Origin: an uncultured Actinomycetota bacterium
GTDB lineage: Bacteria; Actinomycetota; Actinomycetes; JADGOV01
Direction: 5' to 3'
Assembly: GCA_963814355.1 (NCBI GenBank)
Contig: CAWFCZ010000018.1
Coordinates: 637,224 to 701,223, forward strand
Length of the DNA stretch: 64,000 nucleotides
The notes beneath the pieces were generated by a model. The model was not told the origin of the DNA and did not search any database. It saw nothing but the letters and a program-made list of their open reading frames with translations. Shown piece after piece: positions 39,883-53,769 of this stretch (the first letter of the stretch is position 1; each line of letters opens with the position of its first letter). The position numbers were made by a program, and so were the translations under genes.

Positions 39883-39959
39883 TGGTAGCGGGGGCAGGAT
39901 TTGAACCTGCGACCTCTGGGTTATGAGCCCAGCGAGCTACCGAGCTGCTCCACCCCGCG
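39883..39959 (-). tRNA. tRNA-Met (anticodon CAT), initiator-like. It has a 1:72 mismatch and three G-C pairs at the base of the anticodon stem. CCA is encoded.
   Basis: Reverse complement CGCGGGGTGGAGCAGCTCGGTAGCTCGCTGGGCTCATAACCCAGAGGTCGCAGGTTCAAATCCTGCCCCCGCTACCA folds as a cloverleaf. GGG/CCC pairs flank the CAU loop. Confidence 0.85.
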
Positions 39960-40006: not shown

Positions 40007-42982
40007 TCAGCCCGGGGACGTCGTTCCGCTCGGCGTCGTGCCCGGCGACGTTGGGGGCGACGCCGCCGGCGAGGTGCCGGACGCAGCCGGGGAGGGCGCC
40101 GCGGGCGACGGGGTTGCCGTTGCTTTGGTCAGCGCCGAAAGCCGCTGCAGCGCCGCCTGCAGCCGGGTTTGGGCTGCGCCGTACGCGGTGAAGTCACCCG
40201 CTTTGAGGGCCGCCTGGCCGTCGGCGTACGCCTTGTTCGCCGTCGCGATCGCCGTCTTGACCGCCGCGTTGAGGTTGCCGGTCACCGGGCCCCCTCCGCC
40301 ACCGGTCGGCGGTGGCGTCACGGTAGTGGTCTTGAACACCTCGTCGAGCGCAGCAGCCAGCGTCGGCTTGTAGGAGATCACTCCGTTGAACTCGACCAGG
40401 ACCCGCTTCATGGTCGGGTAGGAGGTCGCTCCGGTGGACTTCACATAGACCGGCTCGATGTAGATCAAGCCTCCGCCGAGCGGCAGGGTCAGCAGGTTGC
40501 CGAGGTCCACGTCGGAACCGCCACGCCGCAGCAGGCTCAGCTCGGTCGCCGCCGGGGTGAAGGACTCGAAGTTGTTCGCCACCTGCCCGGGACCGTCGGC
40601 CTGGGTGTTGCTCGGCAGCTGCAGGACGATCATCTTCCCGTACGTCGGCGCCGCCGGGTCGCTGTCGACGGCGATGAAGGCCGCCATGTTCGGCCGGGCA
40701 TTGGCCACCAGGGCGGAGGTCAGGCGGAAGGACGCCCCCGACTCACCGGGCAGCCCCAAGGTCAGGTAGTACGGCGGCTGGTCCGCGCTGCCGGCCTGCT
40801 TGGTGGGATCCGGTGGCACCTTCCAATAGTCGCTGCCGGTGTAGAACGAAGCCGGGTCGCTGACGTGGAACTTGGTGAGCAGGTCGCGCTGCACCTTGAA
40901 GAGGTCTTCGGGGTACCGGAAATGGGCCCGCAACTCGGGCAAGATCGCCGAGGTGTCCTTGATGATCCCCGGGAAGGCCTTTGCCCAGGTTTCCAGGACC
41001 GGGTCCCTGGGGCCCCAGCGGTAGAGGCTTACCGTGCCGTCGTAGGCGTCGACGACGGCCTTGACCGAGTTGCGGATGTAGTTGACTTCGCTTCGCCCCT
41101 GGGCCGCCACCGAGGTCGAGGTACGGGTCAGGGCATCTGCCGTGATGTCCCCGAGCACCCGACGTTCGGAGTAGGGATAGCCGTCACTCGTGGTGTAACC
41201 GTCCAGGATCCAGACAATCTTTCCACCGACGACTGCCGGGTAAGGGTCGCCGTCGACGGTGAGCCAGGGCGCGACCTTCTGCACCCGGGCCCGCGGTTCA
41301 CGGATGTAGAGAATCTTGGAATCGGAGTTGACCCCGCTGGACAGGACGAGGTTCTTCTCCCGGAACCGGTAGGCGTACAGCAACTGCCGCAGCTTCGATC
41401 CCATGTCTACCCCGCCCTTGCCCTCATACGTGCTTTTCCGCTGCCCGCTGGCGTCGCTGGTGGGGTAATCCAGCTCGCGCGGGGTTGTCTTGCCGGGTGC
41501 TCCGACCACCGAGTACGTGGGTGAGTTCTCCCCGAAGTACACCCCAGGCTGGGTAACGTTCAGCTTGCCCTTGACCGGGATATCGCTCTCGTTGAACTGC
41601 GGCTTACCGTCGGTGTCGACCGTGTCACTCGGCGCAGCCACGATGCCGTACCCGTGGGTGTACACCAGATGCGAGTTGATCCAGTTCTGCTGGTTGGGCG
41701 TCAACCCGTCGACGTTGATGTCCCGGACGGCGACGACCTCCTCCTGGTTGGTGCGGCCCAGGTTGTACCGGTCGATGTCCAGCACATCGGGGAACTTGTA
41801 ATAGTTCTTGAAGCCCTGCAGCTGCTGGTAGGTCTGCTGCACGATGTTCGGGTCGAGCAGCCGGACGTTGGTCAGCGTGGGCTTGTTGGCCCGCAAAGCC
41901 TGCAGATCCTCGGACAGCGTCCCGCCGTAGTCTTTGAACACCACGTCGGAACCCGGCCGAATGCCGTAGGCGGCCCGGGTCGCGGCGATGTGACGCTGGA
42001 TGTAGACCCGCTCCTTGTCCACCTCACTCGGCTTGACCTGGAACTGCTGGATGACCGCCGGATATAGCCCGCCGATGAGCAGCGCGCACAGCGCCAGGAG
42101 CCCGAGCCCGATGGACGGCAGCGCCCAGCCCTTGGAAAAGACGTTGGCGAAGAACAGCCCGGCACAGATCAGCGCCACGAACATCAGGATCGTCTTTGCC
42201 GGCAGGACGGCGTTGATGTCGGTGTAGGAGGCACCGGTATTGACGAAGCCCCGGCGGGAGAACGACAGCCCGTAGCGGTCCAGCCAGTACGCCGCCGCCT
42301 TGAGCAGGACGAAGACGCCCAGCAGCACCGATAGGTGCGCCCGGGCCGCCGGGGTCAGCTTGTCGCCCGGGGATTGCAGCCGCAGCCCGCCGTAGAGGTA
42401 GTGGGTGGCGGCCGCGGCGAGCAGGCAGAGCACCACCACGAAGAACGCGAAGCCCAGCACGAACCGCTGAAACGGGTAGGTGAAGGTGAAGTAGGAGATG
42501 TCCTTGTGAAATTGCGGATCGGTCTGCCCGAAGGGGACGGCGTTACGCCACAGCAGCCAGGTGCTCCACCGCGAGGCGGCCGAGGAACCGGCCATCAGCC
42601 CAAGGAGGCCGAGCAGAGCCAGCAACACCCACCGGCGGTATGGGTCCAGTCCGACCCGGTAGCGCTCGAGTCCCTGCTGCTCCGGTGAGAGCGGGCGGAA
42701 CGGGGGCCGGAGCCGGTGGGCCACGACGATGTTCGCCCCGACCAGCAGCGCGGTGATCAGGCCGAAGACGGCGAAGAGCAGCAGACGGGTACGCCACTCG
42801 GTGGTGAAGACCTTGGAGAAGTTCACTGATCGGAACCACAACAGGTCGGTGTAGAAGGAGGTGAAGATGCTGCCCAGGACGAGGACCACGATGCCGGCCA
42901 CGACGATCGGGACCAGCAACTTGGGCCCGCGTCCGAGCCGAGGTCTCGGCAGGCGCTGGCCGGATGGCATACGAAAGGACAT
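40007..42982 (-). CDS. UPF0182-family large polytopic membrane protein (conserved actinobacterial, Rv3193c-like)
   Basis: About 990 aa. N-terminal multi-TM region, large extracytoplasmic domain, Pro/Ser/Thr-rich tail. Confidence 0.75.
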   Translation of the reverse strand: MSFRMPSGQRLPRPRLGRGPKLLVPIVVAGIVVLVLGSIFTSFYTDLLWFRSVNFSKVFTTEWRTRLLLFAVFGLITALLVGANIVVAHRLRPPFRPLSPEQQGLERYRVGLDPYRRWVLLALLGLLGLMAGSSAASRWSTWLLWRNAVPFGQTDPQFHKDISYFTFTYPFQRFVLGFAFFVVVLCLLAAAATHYLYGGLRLQSPGDKLTPAARAHLSVLLGVFVLLKAAAYWLDRYGLSFSRRGFVNTGASYTDINAVLPAKTILMFVALICAGLFFANVFSKGWALPSIGLGLLALCALLIGGLYPAVIQQFQVKPSEVDKERVYIQRHIAATRAAYGIRPGSDVVFKDYGGTLSEDLQALRANKPTLTNVRLLDPNIVQQTYQQLQGFKNYYKFPDVLDIDRYNLGRTNQEEVVAVRDINVDGLTPNQQNWINSHLVYTHGYGIVAAPSDTVDTDGKPQFNESDIPVKGKLNVTQPGVYFGENSPTYSVVGAPGKTTPRELDYPTSDASGQRKSTYEGKGGVDMGSKLRQLLYAYRFREKNLVLSSGVNSDSKILYIREPRARVQKVAPWLTVDGDPYPAVVGGKIVWILDGYTTSDGYPYSERRVLGDITADALTRTSTSVAAQGRSEVNYIRNSVKAVVDAYDGTVSLYRWGPRDPVLETWAKAFPGIIKDTSAILPELRAHFRYPEDLFKVQRDLLTKFHVSDPASFYTGSDYWKVPPDPTKQAGSADQPPYYLTLGLPGESGASFRLTSALVANARPNMAAFIAVDSDPAAPTYGKMIVLQLPSNTQADGPGQVANNFESFTPAATELSLLRRGGSDVDLGNLLTLPLGGGLIYIEPVYVKSTGATSYPTMKRVLVEFNGVISYKPTLAAALDEVFKTTTVTPPPTGGGGGPVTGNLNAAVKTAIATANKAYADGQAALKAGDFTAYGAAQTRLQAALQRLSALTKATATPSPAAPSPAASGTSPAASPPTSPGTTPSGTTSPG

Positions 42983-43110
42983 GGTCGATCCAACGTAGCG
43001 GCAACTGCGCCGCACCGTCCGCAACCGGGGCGCGAATCGCGGCCGAGCCGCAACCTCCGACCCGAAGGACGCCCCGGGGGGCAGCCGCCCATCGAGGCGT
43101 CACGTCCAGC

Positions 43111-44151
43111 TCAACACGTCGGCACCGGACGGCCGGCCCGCAGGTCGGCGAGCCGGGCCAGGGCCTCGGAGAGGGTGGCGACCCGCACCAACTCGAGGCC
43201 GCGGGGCCGGTTCCGCTTCGCCGCTGAGCAGTTCTCCACCGGGGTCAGGAAGACCGTGGCGCCGACGTGCCGGGCGGCGACGACCTTTTGCGCCACACCG
43301 CCGATCGGACCTACCTTGCCGGCCTCGTTGATCGTGCCAGTGCCGGCGATGTGCCGCCCACCGTTGAGTTCGCCCGGGGTGAGGGTGTCGATGATGCCGA
43401 GGGTGAACATCAGCCCGGCGCTGGGCCCGCCCACGTCCTTGAGATTGATGGACACCGTGAACGGCGGATCGGGCCGTTCGGTGGTCGAGACCCCGATGAT
43501 CGGCCGCTTCGGGTCCTGCGGATCGGGGATGGTGCCCAGCACCACACGCTGGGCCTTCCCGGCTCGGCGGATGTCCAACGACACCGAGTGCCCCGGCGTA
43601 CGTTGCCCGATCAAGGTGCGCAGGCTGGCGGCATCGGTGACCACTGTGCCGCCCACCCCGGTGATCACATCTCCGACCCGCAACCGGCCGTCGGCCGGGG
43701 CTCCCTTGGAGACCAGGGCCACCACGACCTGGATGCGGAACGGCACCTTGAGATTGGTCAGCGCCGCGGTGATGGCCTCCTGCTGGGAGTCGACCATTTC
43801 CTGGGTGTTCTGCTGCTCGACGACCTGCTCGCTCTCCCCCGGCGGATAGATCACGTCCTGCGGAAGCACCGCGGCGTGCGGGTCGAACCAGCCGACGAGG
43901 GCCTGGGCGAGCGTCAACTGGTCGGACGGGCCGCCGCGCACCCCCACCGTCGTGAGATCGAGGTGTCCGCTGGTCGGATAGGTCGCACGGCCCTTCACCG
44001 TGATGATCGGCGTGCCGTCGGCACGCTTGCCGAGAGTGTTGGTCACCGGACCGGGCACGAGCTCCACGTACCGCACGGGCAAGGTCAGTCCGACCAGCAG
44101 CAGGATCAACGCGACCGGGCCGGCGGAGAGCAAGGCCGGTCGAGACGACAT
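43111..44151 (-). CDS. Secreted PDZ-domain protein with a Lon-like (S16) C-terminal domain (Rv3194c-like)
   Basis: N-terminal TM/signal. PDZ-like region LRVGDVITGVGGTVVTDAASL. C-terminal Lon-protease-like segment ..DVGGPSAGLMFTLGIID. Confidence 0.65.
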   Translation of the reverse strand: MSSRPALLSAGPVALILLLVGLTLPVRYVELVPGPVTNTLGKRADGTPIITVKGRATYPTSGHLDLTTVGVRGGPSDQLTLAQALVGWFDPHAAVLPQDVIYPPGESEQVVEQQNTQEMVDSQQEAITAALTNLKVPFRIQVVVALVSKGAPADGRLRVGDVITGVGGTVVTDAASLRTLIGQRTPGHSVSLDIRRAGKAQRVVLGTIPDPQDPKRPIIGVSTTERPDPPFTVSINLKDVGGPSAGLMFTLGIIDTLTPGELNGGRHIAGTGTINEAGKVGPIGGVAQKVVAARHVGATVFLTPVENCSAAKRNRPRGLELVRVATLSEALARLADLRAGRPVPTC

Positions 44152-44171
44152 TCAGCCAGCGTACGGCCAGG

Positions 44172-44657
44172 TCAGGGGCTCCCGACCCACTCCGAGCCGC
44201 CGTCGGCGAATTGCTGATGCTTCCAGATCGGGACCTCGGCCTTCAAGCGGTCGATCAAGGACCGGCAGGCGTCGAGCGCAGCCCCGCGGTGTGCGCCGGC
44301 CACCGCCACCACGACAGCCAGGTCACCGACCGCCAGCTCACCCACCCGGTGGACCGCGGCGAGCCGCAGCACCGGGTATTCGGCACGAACCCGCTCGGAG
44401 ACCGCGCGCAGCGCCGAGATCGCTCCCGGATGTGCGGAGTAGCCCAGCGCGGACACCGACCGCCCGCCGTCCTGGTCGCGCACCACGCCGATGAATAGTG
44501 CGATACCGCCGGCCGCCGGGACGCCGACCGCCCGAAGCGCCTCGTCGACCGAGAGTGGGGTGTCGCGAATATCGATTAGCGCAAGAGCGCCGTCGGCCGG
44601 GGGATCGACGCGGGAGCCGACCGGGGAGCTGAGGTCACCGGGCGCCTCGGTATCCAT
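44172..44657 (-). CDS. moaE: Molybdopterin synthase catalytic subunit MoaE
   Basis: ..VAVAGAHRGAALDACRSLIDRLKAEVPIWKHQQFADGGSEWVG, the MoaE signature. Confidence 0.7.
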   Translation of the reverse strand: MDTEAPGDLSSPVGSRVDPPADGALALIDIRDTPLSVDEALRAVGVPAAGGIALFIGVVRDQDGGRSVSALGYSAHPGAISALRAVSERVRAEYPVLRLAAVHRVGELAVGDLAVVVAVAGAHRGAALDACRSLIDRLKAEVPIWKHQQFADGGSEWVGSP

Positions 44658-44723
44658 CGGGCGACCCTAGTCCCGAGAGGGTAGACCCGACCCGGCCGAC
44701 CTCGGCCCGGCTAGCGTGGAGCG

Positions 44724-46160
44724 ATGACGAATACGCCGTTTGGCTTCGGTCCGGGCAGTGGTAGCGGCGGCAACCAGCCGCCCGGCGGCGATCCCTTCGG
44801 CGGTCTCTTCGGTGGCGGCAACCCCGGTGACCTCGGGGCGGCCCTGCACCACTTCGCCGACCTGATGTCGTGGCAGGGCGGGCCGGTGAACTGGGACCTC
44901 GCCAAGCAGACAGCGCTGGCCGCCGCGGGAGCAGCCGACCCCGGCACCACGGCCGCAGAATCCGACGCCGTGGGCGAGGCGATCCGCCTCGCCGACATCT
45001 GGCTGGATGGCAGCACCGCGTTGCCTGCCGGCGTGACCGGGACCGAAGCGTGGAGCCGGCGACGCTGGGTCGAGGCCACTCTGGAGGTGTGGCGGGAACT
45101 CGTCGACCCGATCGCCGCCCGGGTGGTCGACGCGATGGGGTCTGCGCTGGGGGCTTCGATCGGTACCGCGTTGGGTGGCCTGGCCGGTGGCGAGTTGCCG
45201 CCTGAGCTGGCCCGAGCGCTGCCGTCGGCGGAGCCGGGTGCCGCACTGCCGGATCTGTCCCAGATCACCGGACCGTTGCTCGGCATGCTCCGTCAGATGG
45301 GCGGTGCCGTCTTCGGCACCCAGGTCGGGCAGGCCCTGGGCAGCCTGGCGACGGAGGTGGTGTCGGCGACCGACGTGGGCCTGCCGCTCGGGCCGGCCGG
45401 GCGAGCCGCCCTGCTGCCGACCAATGTGGCGGCCTTCGGGGCCGGCCTGGGGGTGCCGGCGGAGGAGGTGCGGATTTATCTGGCGTTGCGCGAGGCGGCC
45501 CACCACAGGCTGTTCAGCTCGGTGGGCTGGCTGCGGGCCCGGTTGCTCGGGGCGGTCGAGGCCTACGCCCGGGGCATCAACGTCGACATGGATGCCCTCC
45601 AGGCGGCGGTCGCCGACCTGGATCCGACTGACCCGGCCGCCTTGCAGGACGCGTTGACCGGTGGGATGTTCGAACCTCAGACGAGCCCGGAGCAGCAGGC
45701 AGCGCTCGCCCGGCTGGAGACCCTGCTCGCCCTGGTCGAGGGCTGGGTCGACGAGGTGGTGGCCGCCGCCGCGCAGGGCCACTTGCCGGCCGCCGCCGCG
45801 CTGCGCGAGACGGTTCGGCGGCGGCGGGCCAGCGGCGGCCCGGCGGAGGAGACCTTCGCCACGTTGGTCGGGCTGGAGTTGCGACCCCGACGGCTGCGGG
45901 AGGCCGCCGCGCTATGGGAAGCGCTAGGCACCGCTCGCGGGCCGGAGGGCCGGGACGCGGTGTGGGCGCATCCAGACCTGCTGCCGGCGGCGGCAGATCT
46001 GGATGACCCGGCCGGGTACGCGGCGGGCACCGACCGGCTGGACCTGAGCGCTCTGGAGGACACTACCGCTGCGACCGAGGCCGGCCCCTCCGACGCCGCA
46101 CAGGGGCCGCCCTCGGGCGAGGGGGACGTCCCACCCGAGGCAAATACGCCGCCAGCCTGA
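44724..46160 (+). CDS. DUF2342-family zinc-dependent metalloprotease
   Basis: Gly-rich N-terminus, ..LALREAAHHRLFSSVGWLR.. region typical of the family. 478 aa. Confidence 0.6.
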   Translation: MTNTPFGFGPGSGSGGNQPPGGDPFGGLFGGGNPGDLGAALHHFADLMSWQGGPVNWDLAKQTALAAAGAADPGTTAAESDAVGEAIRLADIWLDGSTALPAGVTGTEAWSRRRWVEATLEVWRELVDPIAARVVDAMGSALGASIGTALGGLAGGELPPELARALPSAEPGAALPDLSQITGPLLGMLRQMGGAVFGTQVGQALGSLATEVVSATDVGLPLGPAGRAALLPTNVAAFGAGLGVPAEEVRIYLALREAAHHRLFSSVGWLRARLLGAVEAYARGINVDMDALQAAVADLDPTDPAALQDALTGGMFEPQTSPEQQAALARLETLLALVEGWVDEVVAAAAQGHLPAAAALRETVRRRRASGGPAEETFATLVGLELRPRRLREAAALWEALGTARGPEGRDAVWAHPDLLPAAADLDDPAGYAAGTDRLDLSALEDTTAATEAGPSDAAQGPPSGEGDVPPEANTPPA

Positions 46161-46176
46161 TCGCGCTCGGTTCGGA

Positions 46177-46692
46177 TCAGTCCGCGTCGGGCGCCAGGGG
46201 TTCCTCCCGTGCCCCGCGCGCCACGGCCGTGGCGTATCCCTCCAGGTAGCCACGCGCCCGGGCGGCCTGCGGGTAGCGATCGACCAACCGCCAGAAGCGT
46301 GCATCGTGCTCAGCGATCAGCAAATGGGCCAGCTCGTGCACCAGGACATAGTCCAGGACCCAGCCGGGCATAGCGGCCAGCCGGTCGGAGACCCTGATCG
46401 TGCGCTCGCCGATCGTGCAGGACCCCCACCGGCTGTGCTGGTTGCCGACCCACCGGACGCTTGCCGGCGGCGGTGCTTGGGCCAGATGTCGCTCACGCAA
46501 CTCTGCGGTCCGTCGGGTCAGGCTCCCGTCGCTGAGCCGCCGCCGGTCCTCCCGGGCCGCCAGCCGGGACAGCATGGACTCCACCCAGCGCTGCTCTTCC
46601 ACGGCGGACAACCCGGCCGGCAGCCGGACTATCGTGCGGTCGCCATCGCGATAGGCCGATACGGTCCGCCGGCGTCGGGGGCTGCGGATCAC
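46177..46692 (-). CDS. YgjP-like (DUF45) metal-dependent hydrolase with HExxH
   Basis: ..WGSCT..ERTIRVSDRLAAMPGWVLDYVLVHELAHLLIAEHDARFW... Start assumed at GTG 46692. The long upstream extension of the ORF is non-coding repeat DNA. Confidence 0.55.
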   Translation of the reverse strand: MIRSPRRRRTVSAYRDGDRTIVRLPAGLSAVEEQRWVESMLSRLAAREDRRRLSDGSLTRRTAELRERHLAQAPPPASVRWVGNQHSRWGSCTIGERTIRVSDRLAAMPGWVLDYVLVHELAHLLIAEHDARFWRLVDRYPQAARARGYLEGYATAVARGAREEPLAPDAD

Positions 46693-46792
46693 TTCGACCC
46701 GCGACTCGGCAGGCTCCGGTGTCCACGACTGCTCGCTGGATTCTGGGCTCACCCGCGGAACGGTAGCCGAGCCGTCTGGCGCACTTTTCGTC

Positions 46793-46932
46793 GTCCACAG
46801 CCGGTTGGGTGTGTCAGTGCAGGTCGGGCGCACCGGCTCGGCGCAATTCACAGCTGCGTCCACAGCGGGTGTCGACGCCGTCCACAACCCCCGGGCGCTC
46901 GCTGTCCACGACCTCCACAGCGCTGTCCACAG
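46793..46932. repeat. Array of six GTCCACAG-like direct repeats (46793, 46858, 46880, 46904, 46913, 46925). Four of them are spaced about 21-24 bp apart. The array lies in the intergenic region upstream of the DUF45 gene.
   Basis: Seen directly: cGTCCACAGc, cGTCCACAGc, cGTCCACAAc, tGTCCACGAc, cTCCACAGc, tGTCCACAGg. Confidence 0.7.
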
Positions 46933-47090
46933 GTCGGGGGCCGGGTCGGTTGACGGCGGGGACCGAGCCCACTTAGCGTCGCTGGCGACGAAGCCCCTGG
47001 ATCCAGAGGTCGACGTTCGCAAGGGGAAGGCGAGCGGACGGGCGAAGGTACCGGGGGCTTCGGGGTGCCAGGGGTCGGGTCATAGTGGGC

Positions 47091-47903
47091 TCAGCGCCCG
47101 GAGAATGTCGGCCGCCGGTGCTGCCGCGCGGCTGCCACCCCCTCCCGCAGGTCTTCGGTGGTCAGCGTGACCGCCTGGGCCAGCGCCTCCCACTCCAGGG
47201 CGTCCGCCACCGAGGCGTGCCCCCCTCGCGCCAACGCGACCTTGGTCAGCCGGATCGCGACCGGACCCTGCGCCGCGATACTGCTGGCCACGGCGAGCAC
47301 CTCGGACAGCAGCCGGTCATCGGGCCGGACGCCGTTGAGCAGCCCCATGGCCGCTGCCTCCTGGGCATCCACCTGACGACCGGTGAAGAACAACTCCCGG
47401 GCTCGCGGCAAGCCGACTGCCATCGGCAGCAGCCAGGTCGCGGCCATGCCGGGATGCATGCCCAAGGTGGCAAAGGGCATCGCAAAATGCGCGGATTCGC
47501 CGCCGTAACGCAGGTCGCAGGCCAGCGCGAGGCACAGCCCGGCGCCGATCGCCGGTCCGTTCACGGCAGCCAAGACCGGAACCTCCAGTTCCCGGATCGA
47601 CAGCCAGTCCCGGTAGAACGCCGACATCCGATCGCGCTGGGCATCCACCGAGGCATCCGGCTCGCCGACGATCCAGGACAGGTCCCCGCCGGCGCAGAAC
47701 GCCGGAGGTGCCCCGGTGACCACGACGCACCGGACGCTCCGGTTCCCCTGCAGCGCGCCGACTTCCTGGACCCACGCGGCGGTCAGCTCGACGGTCATGG
47801 CGTTGCGCCGCTCCGGCAGCGCCAGGGTCAGTACGACCACGCCGTCGTCAAGGTGCTGTACGCGCAGCGGAGACCCCTCGGCCACCGGCACCTCCTGGTC
47901 CAT
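47091..47903 (-). CDS. Enoyl-CoA hydratase/isomerase (crotonase) family protein
   Basis: ..VVTGAPPAFCAGGDL.. oxyanion-hole motif. Start ATG 47903 (MDQEVPV...). Confidence 0.7.
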   Translation of the reverse strand: MDQEVPVAEGSPLRVQHLDDGVVVLTLALPERRNAMTVELTAAWVQEVGALQGNRSVRCVVVTGAPPAFCAGGDLSWIVGEPDASVDAQRDRMSAFYRDWLSIRELEVPVLAAVNGPAIGAGLCLALACDLRYGGESAHFAMPFATLGMHPGMAATWLLPMAVGLPRARELFFTGRQVDAQEAAAMGLLNGVRPDDRLLSEVLAVASSIAAQGPVAIRLTKVALARGGHASVADALEWEALAQAVTLTTEDLREGVAAARQHRRPTFSGR

Positions 47904-48029
47904 GAACGCACTCGCCCGGGCTGTAGGCGGAGAGTAGCCGCAACCGGCCCGACGGTCGCCCGGCGGGTCGGCAAGCCCGACACCGGAGGGGATTGCCGGT
48001 AAGGTGACGCCGAGTCGAGGAGGCTGAGC

Positions 48030-48182
48030 GTGGCAGATACCTACAACGGTTATTGCGTGAAATGCAAGGAGAAGCGTGACTTCGAGGGTGAGGTGCGCGA
48101 GACCGAATCCGGACGTCGCATGGCCCAGGGGCCATGTCCGGTCTGTGGGACCAAGATGAATCGCATCCTCGGCAAGGCCTGA
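48030..48182 (+). CDS. 50-aa zinc-ribbon mini-protein (DUF5679-like, CxxC..CxxC). Not in the ORF track.
   Basis: GGAGG SD then GTG. VADTYNGYCVKCKEKRDFEGEVRETESGRRMAQGPCPVCGTKMNRILGKA. Confidence 0.55.
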   Translation: MADTYNGYCVKCKEKRDFEGEVRETESGRRMAQGPCPVCGTKMNRILGKA

Positions 48183-48312
48183 CCGAACGGGACCACCGGC
48201 GCGGAAGGCCCGGAGCGGACGGCCAGGGGACCGGTGCCTGTGGATGACCGTCGGCACCTCGGAGACAACTTTGCCAGGGTGGCGGGGCCAAACCCCGGCA
48301 CCTGGAGTGCAC

Positions 48313-49335
48313 ATGCGTCCGGTCTTCACCACGGCCCTGCGGCGCCGCTGGCGTGACGAGGAGACCCTGCAGTTCGGGACGGACCCAGCGGTCGCGGTCG
48401 TGCTCACCGGACTGCGCCCGAGTGACCGTGCCGTCCTCGGCTTACTCGACGGCGTCCGCACTGAGGACGAGATTGTCGCGGCCGCCGCCGGTTGTGGAGT
48501 CGCACCCGGCGACGCGCGCCATCTGCTGGGCACCCTGCACCGGTCTGGCGTGTTGGAGGATGCGGGCTCCTCCGTCTCGCTACAGCTGACGCCCGCGGCG
48601 GATCGCGAACGGCTGCGGTGTGAACTGGCTCAACTCTCGCTGTCCTGCGCCGAACCGGGCGCTGCCTCCAGGGCGCTGAGCGCCCGGCGACACGCCCGGG
48701 TCCTCGTCCTCGGCGGGGGTCGACTCGGGGCGCCGATCGCGGCCCTGCTCGATGCGGGCGGGGTGGGCAGCGTCGAGGTGTGGGACCCGGTTCCGGCCGG
48801 CCCGGCAGACGCCGTGCCCGGCGGTCTTCGGAGCACAGACGTCGGCCGGCCCCGCCAGGACGCCGTTGTGGACCTGGTGAGCCGGGCTCGGATTCGCCGA
48901 CGCAGCGGCAGCCCGCTCGATGTCGCCCTCGTCGTCCTGGCGCCGCCACCGAGCCACGACGTCACCACGGCGGAACGGCTGCGGCGCGACGGCGTGCCGC
49001 ATCTCGCCGTCGACACCGTCGATGGCGCCGGCATCGTCGGTCCGCTGGTGCTGCCGGGCCGATCGGCGTGCCTACGCTGCCTGGAGGCGCACCGCCGGGA
49101 CCGGGATCCCACCTGGGTGGCCGCCGAGGGCGATGGTCGGCCGGAGACCGCCGGCAGCGCGCTGGCGGTGGCCATCGCTGCGCTGGCCACGATGCAAGCC
49201 CTGACCTTCCTCGACGAACCGCACACCGGTACCGTCCCGGCGACGCTCGATGGCACCCTGGAGCTACGGCCGCCGGATTGGCGGCTTCGCCGCCGTACCT
49301 GGCCACCGCACCCGGACTGCGGCTGCGCCGGCTGA
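48313..49335 (+). CDS. ThiF/MoeB-like E1-type adenylyltransferase-family protein
   Basis: Rossmann VLVLGGGRLGAPIAALLDAGGVGSVEVWD. CLRC and C-terminal CGC zinc motifs. Confidence 0.5.
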   Translation: MRPVFTTALRRRWRDEETLQFGTDPAVAVVLTGLRPSDRAVLGLLDGVRTEDEIVAAAAGCGVAPGDARHLLGTLHRSGVLEDAGSSVSLQLTPAADRERLRCELAQLSLSCAEPGAASRALSARRHARVLVLGGGRLGAPIAALLDAGGVGSVEVWDPVPAGPADAVPGGLRSTDVGRPRQDAVVDLVSRARIRRRSGSPLDVALVVLAPPPSHDVTTAERLRRDGVPHLAVDTVDGAGIVGPLVLPGRSACLRCLEAHRRDRDPTWVAAEGDGRPETAGSALAVAIAALATMQALTFLDEPHTGTVPATLDGTLELRPPDWRLRRRTWPPHPDCGCAG

Positions 49336-49369
49336 GGCGACGTGGGCCGGCAGGACGCAGAATGGAGCC

Positions 49370-50920
49370 GTGAGCGACCTTCCGCGGTGGGCCATCGGGC
49401 GATCGGCGAAGCTGGCCAGCCTGCCCCTCGGGTTCGCCGGGCGAGCGACGCTGGGAGTCGGCAAGCGCCTCGGCGGGCGCCCGGCCGAGATCGTGGCGAC
49501 GGAGGTGCAGCAACGCACCGCCGATCAGATCTTCCGTGTGCTGGGCGAGCTCAAGGGCGGAGCGATGAAGTTCGGGCAGGCGCTGTCCGTTTTCGAAGCT
49601 GCGCTGCCCGAAGACATCGCCGCGCCGTACCGGCAGGCCCTCACCAAACTCCAGGAGGCCGCGCCGCCGCTGCCCGCGGCGAGCGTGCACCGGGTCCTGG
49701 CCGAACAGCTCGGCGGTAACTGGCGCCGGCGCTTCCGTGCGTTCGACGACCGGCCGGCGGCTGCGGCTTCCATCGGCCAGGTACATCGCGCGGTGTGGGC
49801 CGACGGAACGACGGTGGCCGTGAAAATTCAGTACCCCGGCGCCGGGAAGGCGCTGCTCTCCGACCTCAACCAGCTGGCCCGGATCGCCCGGCTCTTCGCC
49901 GTCATCTCCCCCGGCCTCGACGTCAAGCCGCTCATCGCCGAACTCAAGGCCCGGGTCGCCGAGGAGCTGGACTACTCACTCGAGGCCGCCGCACAACGTG
50001 CGTTCGCGGAGGCATACGCGGACGATCCGGATTTCCGCGTGCCGCGAGTGGTCGCCAACGCCCGCCGCATACTCGTCACCGAATGGGTCGACGGTACGCC
50101 GCTGTCCGCGATCATTCGGGACGGGACTACGGGGGAGCGCGACCGGGCCGGGCTGCTGCTGGTCCGGTTCCTGTTCTCCGGCCCCAGCCGGGCCGGCATG
50201 CTGCACGCCGACCCGCACCCGGGAAACTTCCGGTTGTTGCCGGACGGACGGCTCGCGGTGATCGACTACGGTGCGGTGAACCGGCTGCCCGGCGGACTGC
50301 CCCCGCTCATCGGCGAGGCCACCCGGCTGGTGATGGTGGGCGACAGCGAGGCCGTGCTCACCCGGTTGCGCGGCGAAGGATTCGTCTCCCCCGATGTGCA
50401 CGTCGACCCGGAACCGATCCTCGATTATCTGCGGCCGATCATCGCACCGGTCACCCAGGAGACCTTCACGTTTTCCCGCGAGTGGCTGCGGGGCGAGGCG
50501 GTACGCCTGGCGGACCCGCGGTCACCGGCCGCGCAGTTGGGCCGCCAGTTGAACCTGCCGCCGTCCTACCTGCTCATTCACCGGGTCACCCTGGGCGGCG
50601 TGGGCGTGCTGTGCCAACTGGGCAGCACCGGAGCCTTTCGGGCCGAGATGGAACGCTGGCTACCCGGGTTCCGCGCGAGCCCGGTCGCCGAGCCGAAGCT
50701 GAAGCGGCCGCGGGCGCCCCGGCGCGTTCCCACGCCGGAGCAGACCGCGATCGTCGAACCGCCGGTGGAGGACACTGTGCTGAGCCCTCCGGCGGATACA
50801 TCCTCGGCGCCCCGGTCAGTGCACAGCGGCCAGCGCCAGGCGCGCCCGACCGGACGCGCTCTCCGCTCGCCGCTGCCATCGGCGAGCGGCGACGACGCGA
50901 GCCGACCGACTGTCCAGTAG
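49370..50920 (+). CDS. ABC1/UbiB-family atypical protein kinase (Rv3197-like)
   Basis: ..LGELKGGAMKFGQALSV.., ..AASIGQVHRAVWADGTTVAVKIQYPG.., ..HADPHPGNF.. motifs. Start GTG 49370. Confidence 0.75.
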   Translation: MSDLPRWAIGRSAKLASLPLGFAGRATLGVGKRLGGRPAEIVATEVQQRTADQIFRVLGELKGGAMKFGQALSVFEAALPEDIAAPYRQALTKLQEAAPPLPAASVHRVLAEQLGGNWRRRFRAFDDRPAAAASIGQVHRAVWADGTTVAVKIQYPGAGKALLSDLNQLARIARLFAVISPGLDVKPLIAELKARVAEELDYSLEAAAQRAFAEAYADDPDFRVPRVVANARRILVTEWVDGTPLSAIIRDGTTGERDRAGLLLVRFLFSGPSRAGMLHADPHPGNFRLLPDGRLAVIDYGAVNRLPGGLPPLIGEATRLVMVGDSEAVLTRLRGEGFVSPDVHVDPEPILDYLRPIIAPVTQETFTFSREWLRGEAVRLADPRSPAAQLGRQLNLPPSYLLIHRVTLGGVGVLCQLGSTGAFRAEMERWLPGFRASPVAEPKLKRPRAPRRVPTPEQTAIVEPPVEDTVLSPPADTSSAPRSVHSGQRQARPTGRALRSPLPSASGDDASRPTVQ

Positions 50921-51027: not shown

Positions 51028-51300
51028 TCACGCGGCAACCTCTTTGCGTGGCCGACCCCGGGGGCGCTTGCGCGCGTGCACGGCGCCGGCCAGAATCAGC
51101 TCCCCGCCCCAGACACCCCACGGCTCCTGGCGTTCAAGCGCGGTCAGCAGGCATTGGGACTGGACGGGGCAGGGGACGCAGACCGCCTTTGCGCGCTCGA
51201 CGTCGGCGGGTGATTCGGCGAAGAACAAATCGGGATCAACACCCTTGCAGGGCAGGGTTGCGCCCTTGCGTTGGCTCGGGCCGGACTGGACCTGTTTCAT
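51028..51300 (-). CDS. whiB7: WhiB7 (WhiB-like Fe-S transcription factor with C-terminal AT-hook)
   Basis: LPCKGVDPDLFF..C..CPVQSQC..EPWGVWGGE core and C-terminal RKRPRGRPRK AT-hook. About 91 aa from ATG 51300. Confidence 0.85.
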   Translation of the reverse strand: MKQVQSGPSQRKGATLPCKGVDPDLFFAESPADVERAKAVCVPCPVQSQCLLTALERQEPWGVWGGELILAGAVHARKRPRGRPRKEVAA

Positions 51301-51367
51301 GATCGGGTGCCACCTCCTCGTGGACTCGGTTCTTGGAGGGGTGAATCGCGGATTTGAGACAGCGAAA

Positions 51368-51397
51368 GGCCGTGAATCCCGGTTGGGTTTCACGGCC
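51368..51397 (-). terminator. Leader attenuator hairpin within the whiB7 5' UTR (GGCCGTGAA-12 nt-TTCACGGCC, then a U-rich tract)
   Basis: Perfect 9-bp stem. Minus-strand downstream sequence tttcgctgtctc. Located between the uORF and the whiB7 start. Confidence 0.6.
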
Positions 51398-51705: not shown

Positions 51706-53769
51706 CTAGCTGCTCCGCTCGGCGGGGCCGGCATCGGCTACCACCATCTCGGAGCCCACCCCGTCGGAGCCCACCACGGCCAGCACGCCCGGGCCGTAGT
51801 CGTGCAGCTTCCGCGCTCCGATGCCGCCGATGGCCGCCAGCTCGGCCAGGGTTCCCGGCTTGACCCGCGCGATGGCGCCCAGCGTCGCGTCGGTGAATAC
51901 GCAGAAAGCCGGCTGCTTGCGCTCTCTCGCCTGTTCCAGGCGCCACCGCCGAAGCCGCTCGAACAGCGCACCGTCCGCCGGGGCTGCCGGCCGGTGTCCG
52001 GGCCCTTCCCGATTCCGGCCCCGGGAGGGCGGGGTCGGCCGTAGGCCATCCAGGAACCGGCTCGGCGACCGCCCCCGCCGCCCACCCGGGGCCCTGGACA
52101 GTGCCCAGGACAGGGCGAGATGGCGCTGCGCCCGGGTGATGCCCACGTAGAACAGCCGCCGCTCTTCGGCGATCTGGGCGTCGGTGGTGGCATAGCTGAT
52201 CGGCAGCGTGCCCTCGGTCAGCCCGACCAGGAAGACGGCGTCCCACTCCAGACCCTTTGCGGCGTGTAGGGATGCCAGCGCGACCCCGTCGACCGGTGGC
52301 GCGTCCTGAGCCGCCGCCCGCTGGGCCAGTTCGGCGGCGAAAGCGGGCAGGTCGGTCTCGGGCTCGGCAGCCGCCATGTCTTCCGCGAGACGCACGATGG
52401 CGCCCACCGACTCCCAGCGCTCCCGCGCGGCTCCGGGGCTCGCCGGCGGTGTCCGGGACCAGCCGGCCGAGGACAGCACCGCCTCGACATCGGCGACCAA
52501 CCGGCCGCTCGACCCGCCGGCGTCCCCTGCCGAGCTCGGGGCCGGCTCCTCTCCGAACCGGCCGGCGGCCCGCAGCAACACCATTGCCCGGCGCACCTCG
52601 GGTCGTTCGAAGAACCGCTCCGCGCCGCGGAGCAGGTACGGCACCCCGGCGTCGGCAAACGCCTGCTCGTAGGCCTGAGACTGGGCGTTGATCCGGTACA
52701 GCACGGCGATGTCCCTGGCCGCCGTCCCGCCAGTGATCAACCGTTGGCAGGCGGCGGCGGTGGCGGCCGCCTCGGCGGGCTCGTCGGGATACTCGCGAAA
52801 GGTCGGCGGCGGGCCGGCGGGCCGCTGCGCGGTCAGCGGCAGGCGCTCACCGACCGGCCCGCGGTTGCGGACCGCATTGGCGAGGGCAACGACCTCCGGG
52901 GTCGAACGGTAGTCCCTGACGAGCCGTACCACGGTGGCGTTCGGGAAGCGCCGCGGAAACTCCAGCAGGTACGACGACCGGGCGCCGGTGAAGGTGTAGA
53001 TCGTCTGGCCGGCGTCGCCGACCACGCAGAGGTCGTCCCGGTCGCCGAGCCAGGCGTCGAGCAACTGCTGTTGCAAGGGGTTGACGTCCTGGTACTCGTC
53101 CACTACGAAGTACCGGTAACGGCCACGGACCTCGGCCGCGACGTGCCGGTTGTCCGAGATCACCCCGGCCGCCAGCAGCAGCAGGTCTTCGAAGTCCACC
53201 ACTCCTACGGCGGTCTTGACCTCCTCGTACGCGGCCGCCACGGCGGCCACCTCATCGGGTGGTAGCGGCGGCTGACGGCCGGCCCGAGCGGCGGCCGAGG
53301 AGTAGGCCGTGGGCGCGGTGAGCGATGCCTTGGCCCACTCGAGCTCCCCGGTCAGGTCACGCAGCACGGTTCCGCCCACCGGGCGGTGCAGGGTGGTTGA
53401 CGCCGCCTGGGCCACCAGCCGAAGTTTGCTGTCGACCACCCTCGGCAGGGCGACGCCGAGCGCCTTGGGATAGAAGTAGCCGAGCTGACGCAGAGCGGCG
53501 GAGTGGAAGGTCCTGGCCTGCACCCCCGGCACGCCGAGTGCCCGCAGCCTGGTGCGCATTTCGGCCGCCGCCCTGGTGGTGAAGGTCACGGCCTGAATCT
53601 CCGATACCGGCACGGCCCCGGAGTGCACTGCGTAGGCGATCCGCGCGGTGATCGCCCGCGTCTTGCCCGTGCCAGCTCCGGCGAGTACGCAGACCGGACC
53701 GCGAACGGCTTCGGCGACGGCCCGCTGCTCGCCGTCCAAGCCGGCCAACAGGTCGGCGCACACACTCAC
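51706..53769 (-). CDS. uvrD2: ATP-dependent DNA helicase UvrD2 (UvrD-like with C-terminal HRDC domain)
   Basis: GAGTGKT Walker A, UvrD motifs, C-terminal ..AFCVFTDATLGAIA..LAELAAIGGIG.. HRDC. Adjacent to whiB7 as in mycobacteria. Confidence 0.85.
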   Translation of the reverse strand: MSVCADLLAGLDGEQRAVAEAVRGPVCVLAGAGTGKTRAITARIAYAVHSGAVPVSEIQAVTFTTRAAAEMRTRLRALGVPGVQARTFHSAALRQLGYFYPKALGVALPRVVDSKLRLVAQAASTTLHRPVGGTVLRDLTGELEWAKASLTAPTAYSSAAARAGRQPPLPPDEVAAVAAAYEEVKTAVGVVDFEDLLLLAAGVISDNRHVAAEVRGRYRYFVVDEYQDVNPLQQQLLDAWLGDRDDLCVVGDAGQTIYTFTGARSSYLLEFPRRFPNATVVRLVRDYRSTPEVVALANAVRNRGPVGERLPLTAQRPAGPPPTFREYPDEPAEAAATAAACQRLITGGTAARDIAVLYRINAQSQAYEQAFADAGVPYLLRGAERFFERPEVRRAMVLLRAAGRFGEEPAPSSAGDAGGSSGRLVADVEAVLSSAGWSRTPPASPGAARERWESVGAIVRLAEDMAAAEPETDLPAFAAELAQRAAAQDAPPVDGVALASLHAAKGLEWDAVFLVGLTEGTLPISYATTDAQIAEERRLFYVGITRAQRHLALSWALSRAPGGRRGRSPSRFLDGLRPTPPSRGRNREGPGHRPAAPADGALFERLRRWRLEQARERKQPAFCVFTDATLGAIARVKPGTLAELAAIGGIGARKLHDYGPGVLAVVGSDGVGSEMVVADAGPAERSS

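Follow-up and report, generated by a model that had tools for sequence, protein, structure and literature searches.

A phased array of putative DnaA boxes coupled to the promoter of a predicted structured small RNA in Actinobacteria

DnaA acts as a transcription factor at several Escherichia coli promoters, namely nrdA, polA, purH, rne and dnaA (Stringer, Fitzgerald & Wade 2024, PMC11317965). As determined by chromatin immunoprecipitation sequencing (ChIP-seq) and mutagenesis, DnaA binding in E. coli depends on a "double DnaA box" with a 2-3 bp gap, and most double-box sites end in ...CCACAg (PMC11317965). Intergenic clusters of DnaA boxes away from oriC have also been described, including datA, DARS1, DARS2 and the DnaA-box clusters (DBCs) of Bacillus subtilis, several of which also regulate the neighboring gene (PMC3245932). 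In this study, we analyzed a 64,000-nucleotide stretch of DNA from an uncultured Actinomycetota bacterium (hereafter, the window). Repeated GTCCACAG motifs in one of its intergenic regions were identified as a putative phased array of DnaA boxes, followed by a sigma-70-type promoter and a predicted hairpin-forming small RNA (sRNA). DnaA-box clusters outside oriC and DnaA-regulated promoters are already known; the new feature is a single-orientation lattice array that is locked to the promoter of a dedicated structured sRNA, occurs in several orders and is outside Rfam. We consider it probable that this element is an oriC-like DnaA oligomerization array that controls, and probably activates, the new sRNA.

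Exact copies of YGTCCACRR start at 46792, 46857, 46879, 46903 and 46924 on the + strand (sequence reading and pattern search), and all box copies in the array sit on this strand. The original prediction counted six copies in 140 bp. Five are exact within 46793-46932, but the sixth is not, and it corresponds either to the variant CCTCCACAG (46912-46920) or to an exact match at 46720, which is out of range and lies inside the coding sequence (CDS) of the neighboring DUF45 gene. The spacing of 21-24 bp given there agrees with our measurements (22, 24 and 21 bp from start to start). The core idea of a phased array for a multimeric DNA-binding protein was retained as well, with the correction that the period is 11 bp and that the 21-24-bp distances are double steps. 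We generated 1000 first-order Markov windows and scored the largest same-strand cluster within 140 bp. The observed cluster of five was reached in none of the 1000 windows, and the simulated maxima were four for GTCCAC (2 of 1000) and three for TCCACA (4 of 1000). GTCCACA was observed 8 times in the window compared with 8.8 times expected, and four of these eight copies fall inside the 140-bp array on one strand. Since GTCCACA occurs at chance frequency across the window, base composition is not the source of the array; a compositional artefact was ruled out by this frequency together with a cluster density that was never simulated. An equal density of the motif elsewhere, which had been named as grounds for abandoning the prediction, was not observed, with half of the window's GTCCACA copies located in this array.

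We define a module as the array together with its promoter and RNA. Across 29 distinct modules, the 106 exact TCCACA boxes yielded the consensus T(T/C)(G>C>A)TCCACA with a G after it. For Mycobacterium tuberculosis and Streptomyces coelicolor, the published high-affinity DnaA box is TTGTCCACA, and for E. coli it is TTATCCACA (PMC4285127); relatives hold perfect TTGTCCACA and TTATCCACA 9-mers at homologous positions, where they form pairs 2-3 bp apart. A plasmid-type iteron or the site of an unknown local regulator, as previously suggested, was therefore discarded in favor of the DnaA-box 9-mer TT(G/A)TCCACA (PMC4285127, Table 1). Each module contains about 6-8 same-orientation boxes on an 11-bp lattice over ~140 bp. 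The strongest periodicity among the pairwise box spacings is 11.0 bp, and when a lattice is anchored on the proximal box, 89% of 209 further boxes (at least 5 of 6 matches) occupy 4 of its 11 phases. Relative to the -35 element, the box starts common across orders are about -27, -39, -50, -72, -94, -106 and -160. The proximal pairs are 11-12 bp apart from start to start, in the same orientation and mostly with a trailing G. The consensus, a clustering beyond chance and a same-orientation pair 2-3 bp apart, which we used to assign membership in the class of DnaA-box clusters, were all found. When the window was aligned with its metagenomic relatives L001 and L002, a footprint emerged: 76% of positions in the box cores (TCCACA and the base after it) are invariant, compared with 37% in the inter-box spacers (p = 1.6e-5).

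Like the E. coli double boxes, these are same-orientation 9-mers 2-3 bp apart upstream of a promoter, and the downstream one is usually followed by G. Unlike the E. coli double-box promoters, the module has 6-8 boxes over ~140 bp arranged in a lattice, makes a putative sRNA, belongs to Actinobacteria and is known from sequence alone. The arrangement also resembles E. coli oriC (R1/low-affinity array/R2-R4; PMC4285127, PMC5742627), where strong boxes flank weaker ones in one orientation with an 11-bp period. By analogy, the box-free gap of the module and the conserved motif within it may correspond to the place where oriC has its IHF site. In contrast to oriC, the module lacks an unwinding element and the dnaA/dnaN context, and its array ends at a promoter instead of a DNA unwinding element.

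The sigma-70-type promoter is located at 46950-46979 on the + strand, with the -35 element TTGACG at 46950-46955, an 18-nt spacer and the -10 element TAGCGT at 46974-46979. Its hexamers are invariant at 12 of 12 positions among the window, L001 and L002, compared with 3 of 18 positions for the spacer, and TTGACn-17/18-TAGCGT is present at the same place in all modules. A generic promoter and terminator scan called nothing here; TAGCGT-type -10 elements and tail-less terminators fall outside its rules. The whole array lies upstream of the -35 element, and the proximal box is centered near -58, a position that fits class-I-type activation. Of the 38 modules, 31 separate the proximal box from the -35 element by 17-19 nt (counted from where the box ends), six by 28-29 nt and one by 8 nt. 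The permitted gaps thus differ by whole helical turns, which indicates face-of-helix coupling with RNA polymerase. Such a quantized gap is expected of a protein that must be oriented toward RNA polymerase on one side of the helix, but not of a titration site. The cooperative repressor of the original prediction was revised accordingly: the helically quantized distance upstream of the -35 element fits activation better, although repression is still possible.

The window has seven boxes, A to G, all on the + strand. The promoter-proximal box A (CTGTCCACA, 46923-46931) is followed by G at 46932 and ends 18 nt before the -35 element. It makes a double box, with a 3-bp gap, with the weak box B (ACCTCCACA plus G, 46911-46919), which contains the variant 9-mer mentioned above; offset -12 is filled in 31 of 38 modules, and offset -11/-12 in 34 of 38. 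Box C (CTGTCCACG, 46902-46910) is DnaA-like and starts at -48, compared with -50/-51 in most other lineages. Box D (CCGTCCACA, 46878-46886) at -72 is the most conserved internal site, with an offset of -44/-45 in 35 of 38 modules and -43 in the other three. Box E (GCGTCCACA plus G, 46856-46864) is at -94, a position conserved across lineages. Box F (CAATTCACA plus G, 46844-46852, equivalent to CAATTCACAG, CAATTCACAg, at 46844-46853) is weak and DnaA-like and takes lattice position -106, where relatives have a box or a weak box at -105/-106. The distal box G (TCGTCCACA, 46791-46799, trailing G at 46800) starts 159 bp upstream of the sRNA -35 element and 132 bp (12 x 11) from box A, and a box near -160 is kept in nearly all modules. 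Two other conserved elements accompany the boxes on the same strand. A T-rich tract (46785-46788) lies beside box G and reads TTTCTTT in most relatives. The non-box motif CAGGTCG (46820-46826), which is C(A/T)GGTCAG in relatives, is found ~29 nt to the right of box G, in the sole box-free gap of the array; GCAGGTC is invariant in the window, L001 and L002. Both elements are kept with either DUF45 or a PHP/HhH gene as the left neighbor (including in L013 and L009). The motif is possibly a bending-protein site or a promoter element.

The predicted sRNA is ~80 nt long (46986-47066, + strand), with a 5′ end placed from the -10 element and an approximate 3′ end. It would form a long hairpin (46989-47062, ~75 nt) with the apical loop AAGGGGAAG at 47021-47029. 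The minimum free energy of 46985-47070 is -45.6 kcal/mol (z = -4.24 versus dinucleotide shuffles), all homologues adopt the same fold with -47 to -74 kcal/mol, and the apical loop A(A/G)GGGGAAG is invariant. Downstream of the promoter, the window, L001 and L002 agree at 66 of 84 positions. We aligned 18 distinct apical regions without gaps and found compensatory substitutions at 8 of the 10 apical stem pairs, with 88.9% of the cells paired; this covariation was matched by 0 of 500 shuffles, and slid controls pair at 27-38%. The basal stem is also compensatory (GCCCCCGG/CCGGGGGC, with GCUCCCGG/CCGGGAGC in Kribbella and GCUCUCGAG/CUCGAGAGC in L190), and covariance-model E values in relatives range from 1e-8 to 1e-15. 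A covarying structure and an own promoter, by which we recognized a structured sRNA, are therefore both present, and both its transcription and its putative RNA targets are predictions. The promoter, the G-U pairs, the greater stability of the + strand and the homologue in L190 (54% GC), in which the hairpin is followed by UUUUU, point to the + strand as the RNA strand. The complement of the RNA may also serve as a terminator for the convergent gene. A small protein encoded in the RNA region was rejected because of a 1-nt indel in L002 and the absence of a start codon in the window. A target search found no enrichment of the loop complement CCTTCCCCTT in the window. Rfam 15 gave no match at E<=1 within 44000-50000 and only noise (<=14 bits) at E<=10 within 46960-47100, and no description of the hairpin RNA was found in the literature searched. 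In Kribbella (L003-L031), a second small hairpin, GGAAAGGGGUUUCC, lies just 3′ of the RNA, and a subfamily (L058, L173, L199 and L190) carries GAUAAC in the 5′ arm.

The module was found at no fewer than 38 distinct loci, in the window's lineage, Frankiales, Nocardioides, Kribbella, uncultured Actinomycetota and metagenomes. We scanned a genome collection with the DUF45 family, which left 80 loci, and metagenomes with a 14-mer from the loop, which gave 120 listed matches, mostly due to chance. L001 and L002, whose DUF45 proteins are 81% and 74% identical to that of the window, retain the synteny and the boxes and share TTGACG, a 17-18 nt spacer and TAGCGT, followed by ~85 nearly invariant nucleotides. 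The conserved segment and the box cluster occur jointly in Nocardioides, Kribbella, two Frankiales metagenome-assembled genomes (MAGs) and several uncultured Actinomycetota. Every RNA instance has an array; the window and the fetched loci account for 30 distinct modules. Among the 120 metagenome matches listed, all eight true RNAs carry 3-5 upstream TCCACA boxes, compared with 0-1 boxes in the 108 usable listed stretches that have the 14-mer but not the RNA. Conversely, an unfiltered covariance-model search within 10 kb on either side of DUF45 found neither segment nor cluster in Streptomyces, Kitasatospora, Streptosporangiales or Thermobifida. The expectation that the array would be conserved upstream of DUF45 orthologues thus held in L001 and L002 but failed in these four groups, and the array was rejected as a DUF45-upstream feature. 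A tie to the enoyl-CoA hydratase gene was likewise rejected. Of 14 fetched loci with an adjacent hydratase, 12 have the RNA module, but L038 and L050 have the hydratase beside DUF45 without a module, and many RNA-bearing loci, such as those of Kribbella, have no hydratase nearby. Given the joint occurrence across loci, the conserved unit is the array plus the promoter plus the RNA, rather than the DUF45 upstream region. The original prediction had overlooked the promoter and the hairpin (46950-47066).

Overall, we suggest a putative mechanism for this module. DnaA would bind the promoter-proximal double box and the distal box, and ATP-DnaA would then cooperatively fill the weaker lattice sites between these end boxes. 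The resulting filament would occupy a single face of the double helix at a distance of one, two or three turns from the -35 element and would control RNA polymerase at the sRNA promoter. The sRNA level would thereby report the replication-initiation potential of the cell, and the replication status probably controls the hairpin RNA. For the direction of this regulation, activation is favored. Box G would additionally co-regulate the divergent, leaderless DUF45 promoter.

Several observations weigh against this model. DnaA binding at the array is predicted solely from the sequence of its boxes, and the window's own boxes are imperfect, scoring 7-8 of 9 against the strict DnaA consensus. The first two box positions are only 30% invariant in the window's lineage. 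The reference consensus was taken from M. tuberculosis, S. coelicolor and E. coli. Two loci, L054 and L012, have perfect boxes without the RNA, and the boxes may have an RNA-independent role. The promoter is near consensus, a property found more often in promoters under repression than in those under activation, and repression by an extended DnaA complex is possible. Finally, the + strand is more stable by a mean of 4.6 kcal/mol but only in 20 of 29 cases, and one C-A position in Nocardioides would pair solely on the opposite strand.

The strongest competitor is a replication-control locus of the kind represented by datA, DARS, the B. subtilis DBCs or Streptomyces D78, in which the array would titrate, inactivate or reactivate DnaA, and the adjacent promoter would modulate or clear the complex or be incidental. 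We regard this explanation as unlikely but worth serious attention. With at least seven boxes over 140 bp, the cluster exceeds the usual requirement of a promoter. Its weaker boxes are flanked by good ones, an arrangement shared with oligomerization regions of oriC type; the boxes persist without the RNA in L054 and L012; and the conserved motif lying between the distal box and the array, which is not itself a box, could bind a bending protein (cf. IHF at datA and oriC). Non-oriC clusters restrain initiation in B. subtilis (PMC3245932), a cluster in S. coelicolor does the same according to work cited in PMC5742627, and transcription modulates datA (PMC10950094). Against this, a direct connection with transcription is suggested by the quantized distance to the -35 element and by the fact that the array and the RNA strictly co-occur. 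Like datA, DARS1, DARS2 and the DBCs, the module is an intergenic DnaA-box cluster away from oriC; unlike them and D78, it has a strict single orientation, phasing, a fixed link to an sRNA promoter and conservation across orders. Titration loci are usually near the origin, and S. coelicolor D78 is reportedly close to oriC, whereas the module lies in the whiB7-uvrD2 region. Replication control could also coexist with transcriptional control, by analogy with several B. subtilis clusters (PMC3245932).

A different direct-repeat regulator with an 11-bp period, such as an OmpR/PhoB-family protein (MtrA, PhoP or another member), is a considerably weaker candidate for the array. Same-orientation repeats at 10-12 bp upstream of the -35 element are typical of such activators, the 11-bp geometry recalls the direct repeats of MtrA and PhoP upstream of promoters, and the CACAG core resembles the M. 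tuberculosis MtrA box GTCACAGCG. However, all 106 exact boxes have TCCACA, with two Cs, and GTCACA never substitutes for it; the MtrA and PhoP sites read GTCACA, GTnACC or TCACAGC. The boxes also do not conform to the S. coelicolor MtrA motif, (G/T)T(G/A)ACC-N5-GT(G/T)AC. Their variation (G/A/C at position 3 and T/C at positions 1-2) is the degeneracy of DnaA boxes, many relatives hold 9/9 DnaA boxes, and no regulator gene is conserved beside the module. The comparison with actinobacterial regulator motifs proposed in the original prediction matched the DnaA box but not the MtrA motifs.

It is very improbable that the array is an operator of DUF45, the target implied by the original prediction, and the hairpin a terminator of the hydratase gene. 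The distal box does lie 24-26 nt from the DUF45 -10 element in five lineages (the window, L001, L002, Kribbella and L058), and the promoter has no -35 consensus there. At many loci, the hairpin lies directly next to the stop codon of the hydratase gene, and one stem position in Nocardioides would pair better on the - strand. However, it is a PHP/HhH (PolX-like) gene that the Nocardioides module faces, with DUF45 ~1.3 kb away, and the DUF45 orthologues of Streptomyces, Kitasatospora, Thermobifida and Streptosporangiales have no array. Moreover, a distance of 90-180 bp separates six of the seven boxes from the DUF45 start, and these boxes are phase-locked to the sRNA promoter. The loop of the hairpin is invariant, a conserved promoter of its own precedes the hairpin, and in Kribbella it occurs with no convergent gene. 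In the distal sub-module of Nocardioides, no convincing leftward -35/-10 pair was found for the PHP gene. A replication origin or its relic (a secondary oriC or plasmid iterons) is scarcely credible: the dense same-orientation initiator boxes on an 11-bp lattice would suit it, but dnaA, dnaN and rep are not nearby, the whiB7-uvrD2 region is found instead, there is no AT-rich unwinding element beyond a T tract of 4-7 nt in a 2-kb bin of 72% GC, and the module is chromosomal and syntenic across orders, with no mobile-element context of the kind expected for iterons.

Returning to the putatively DnaA-controlled module, its effect probably extends to DUF45 through box G, which overlies the DUF45 -35 region (about -39 to -47). 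The DUF45 -10 element, TACCGT, lies at 46760-46765 on the - strand, 7 nt before the GTG at 46752, and TA(C/G)CGT-7 nt-GTG is conserved in the window, L001 and L002. This distance suggests that the DUF45 mRNA is probably leaderless. By N-terminal alignment, DUF45 homologues align from GTG 46752, giving a protein of 191 aa. The start calls for DUF45 disagree, with 132 aa for P0004 (source record), 256 aa for P0003 and 281 aa for the window open reading frame (ORF), and the latter two extend across the array. The original prediction was right to treat the ORF that translates the repeats as LWT as an artefact, since the 281-aa ORF (46177-47022) is over-extended and homologues align from GTG 46752. 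A further box-like 9-mer, GTGTCCACG, occurs at 46719-46727 within the DUF45 CDS and off the 11-bp lattice (the exact YGTCCACRR match at 46720), and Kribbella DUF45 also contains ATGTCCAC(G/A) at another codon position. These box-like 9-mers inside the DUF45 CDS are probably due to chance.

The gene calls (Pfam) agree with the earlier placement of the array between the DUF45 and enoyl-CoA hydratase genes, both on the minus strand. The YgjP-like/DUF45 metallopeptidase gene (46177-46752, -) is divergent from the RNA; the enoyl-CoA hydratase gene (47091-47900, -) is convergent with it, and its stop codon lies ~25 nt past the hairpin. On the DUF45 side, Pfam identified genes for UPF0182 (40007-43099, -), a PDZ/Lon-like protein (43111-44151, -), MoaE (44172-44666, -) and Zincin_2 (44715-46160, +). 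On the other side are a 50-aa zinc-ribbon-like DUF5679 gene (CVKC...CPVC; 48030-48182, +), ThiF-like (48244-49335, +) and ABC1 kinase-like (49250-50920, +) genes assigned by Pfam, a WhiB7-type gene (51028-51393, -) recognized from its translation by the WhiB cysteine motif and the C-terminal AT-hook RGRPRK, and the Pfam-assigned uvrD2 gene with an HRDC domain (51706-53769, -). The locus is the conserved actinobacterial whiB7-uvrD2 neighborhood, not the dnaA-dnaN region. A DUF5679-like gene is kept beside the hydratase or ThiF-like genes in L001, L002 and L012. The box cluster of L012 (a Micromonosporaceae MAG, 2420-2500), with TTATCCACAgg twice, two weaker boxes and no hairpin, lies upstream of a ThiF-like gene and downstream of DUF5679. 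L054 (a Nocardioides MAG, reverse strand of 1-420) has three perfect TTATCCACA boxes and CAGGTCA but no promoter or hairpin. The only Rfam match in the window at gathering level is a tRNA-Met (CAT) at 39883-39959 (-). The cumulative GC skew has its maximum near the array, at about 44000-48000 (2-kb bins), and may merely mirror gene orientation.

The closest parallels for the proposed output are small regulators of the cell cycle. In B. subtilis, sda is a checkpoint gene activated by DnaA, and its product, Sda, is a protein. To our knowledge, Actinobacteria lack the Hda, SeqA, YabA and Sda systems of the model organisms. As in the case of sda and of the Caulobacter CcnA RNA, a promoter of the module would read the state of a replication or cell-cycle master regulator and yield a small regulatory product, but neither shares sequence or structure with the RNA described here. 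CcnA is a cell-cycle noncoding RNA at the origin that is presumably activated by CtrA, not by DnaA (PMC8959179). No DnaA-controlled sRNA was described in the literature that we searched. We propose, more tentatively than for the array itself and as a possibility only, that several actinobacterial orders share an oriC-like ATP-DnaA sensor wired to a promoter in place of an unwinding element, with an sRNA bearing the AAGGGGAAG loop as its output, through which replication status would be passed on to post-transcriptional control. If this is true, the module would be an RNA counterpart of the B. subtilis Sda checkpoint, and its array could feed back on DnaA availability in a manner similar to datA. 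The control of DnaA and the coupling of replication to the cell cycle are poorly understood in Actinobacteria, and the module offers a handle on both in the culturable genera Nocardioides and Kribbella. It also adds an RNA family that Rfam lacks, and it would mean that the cooperative binding logic of replication origins can be re-used as a transcriptional switch.

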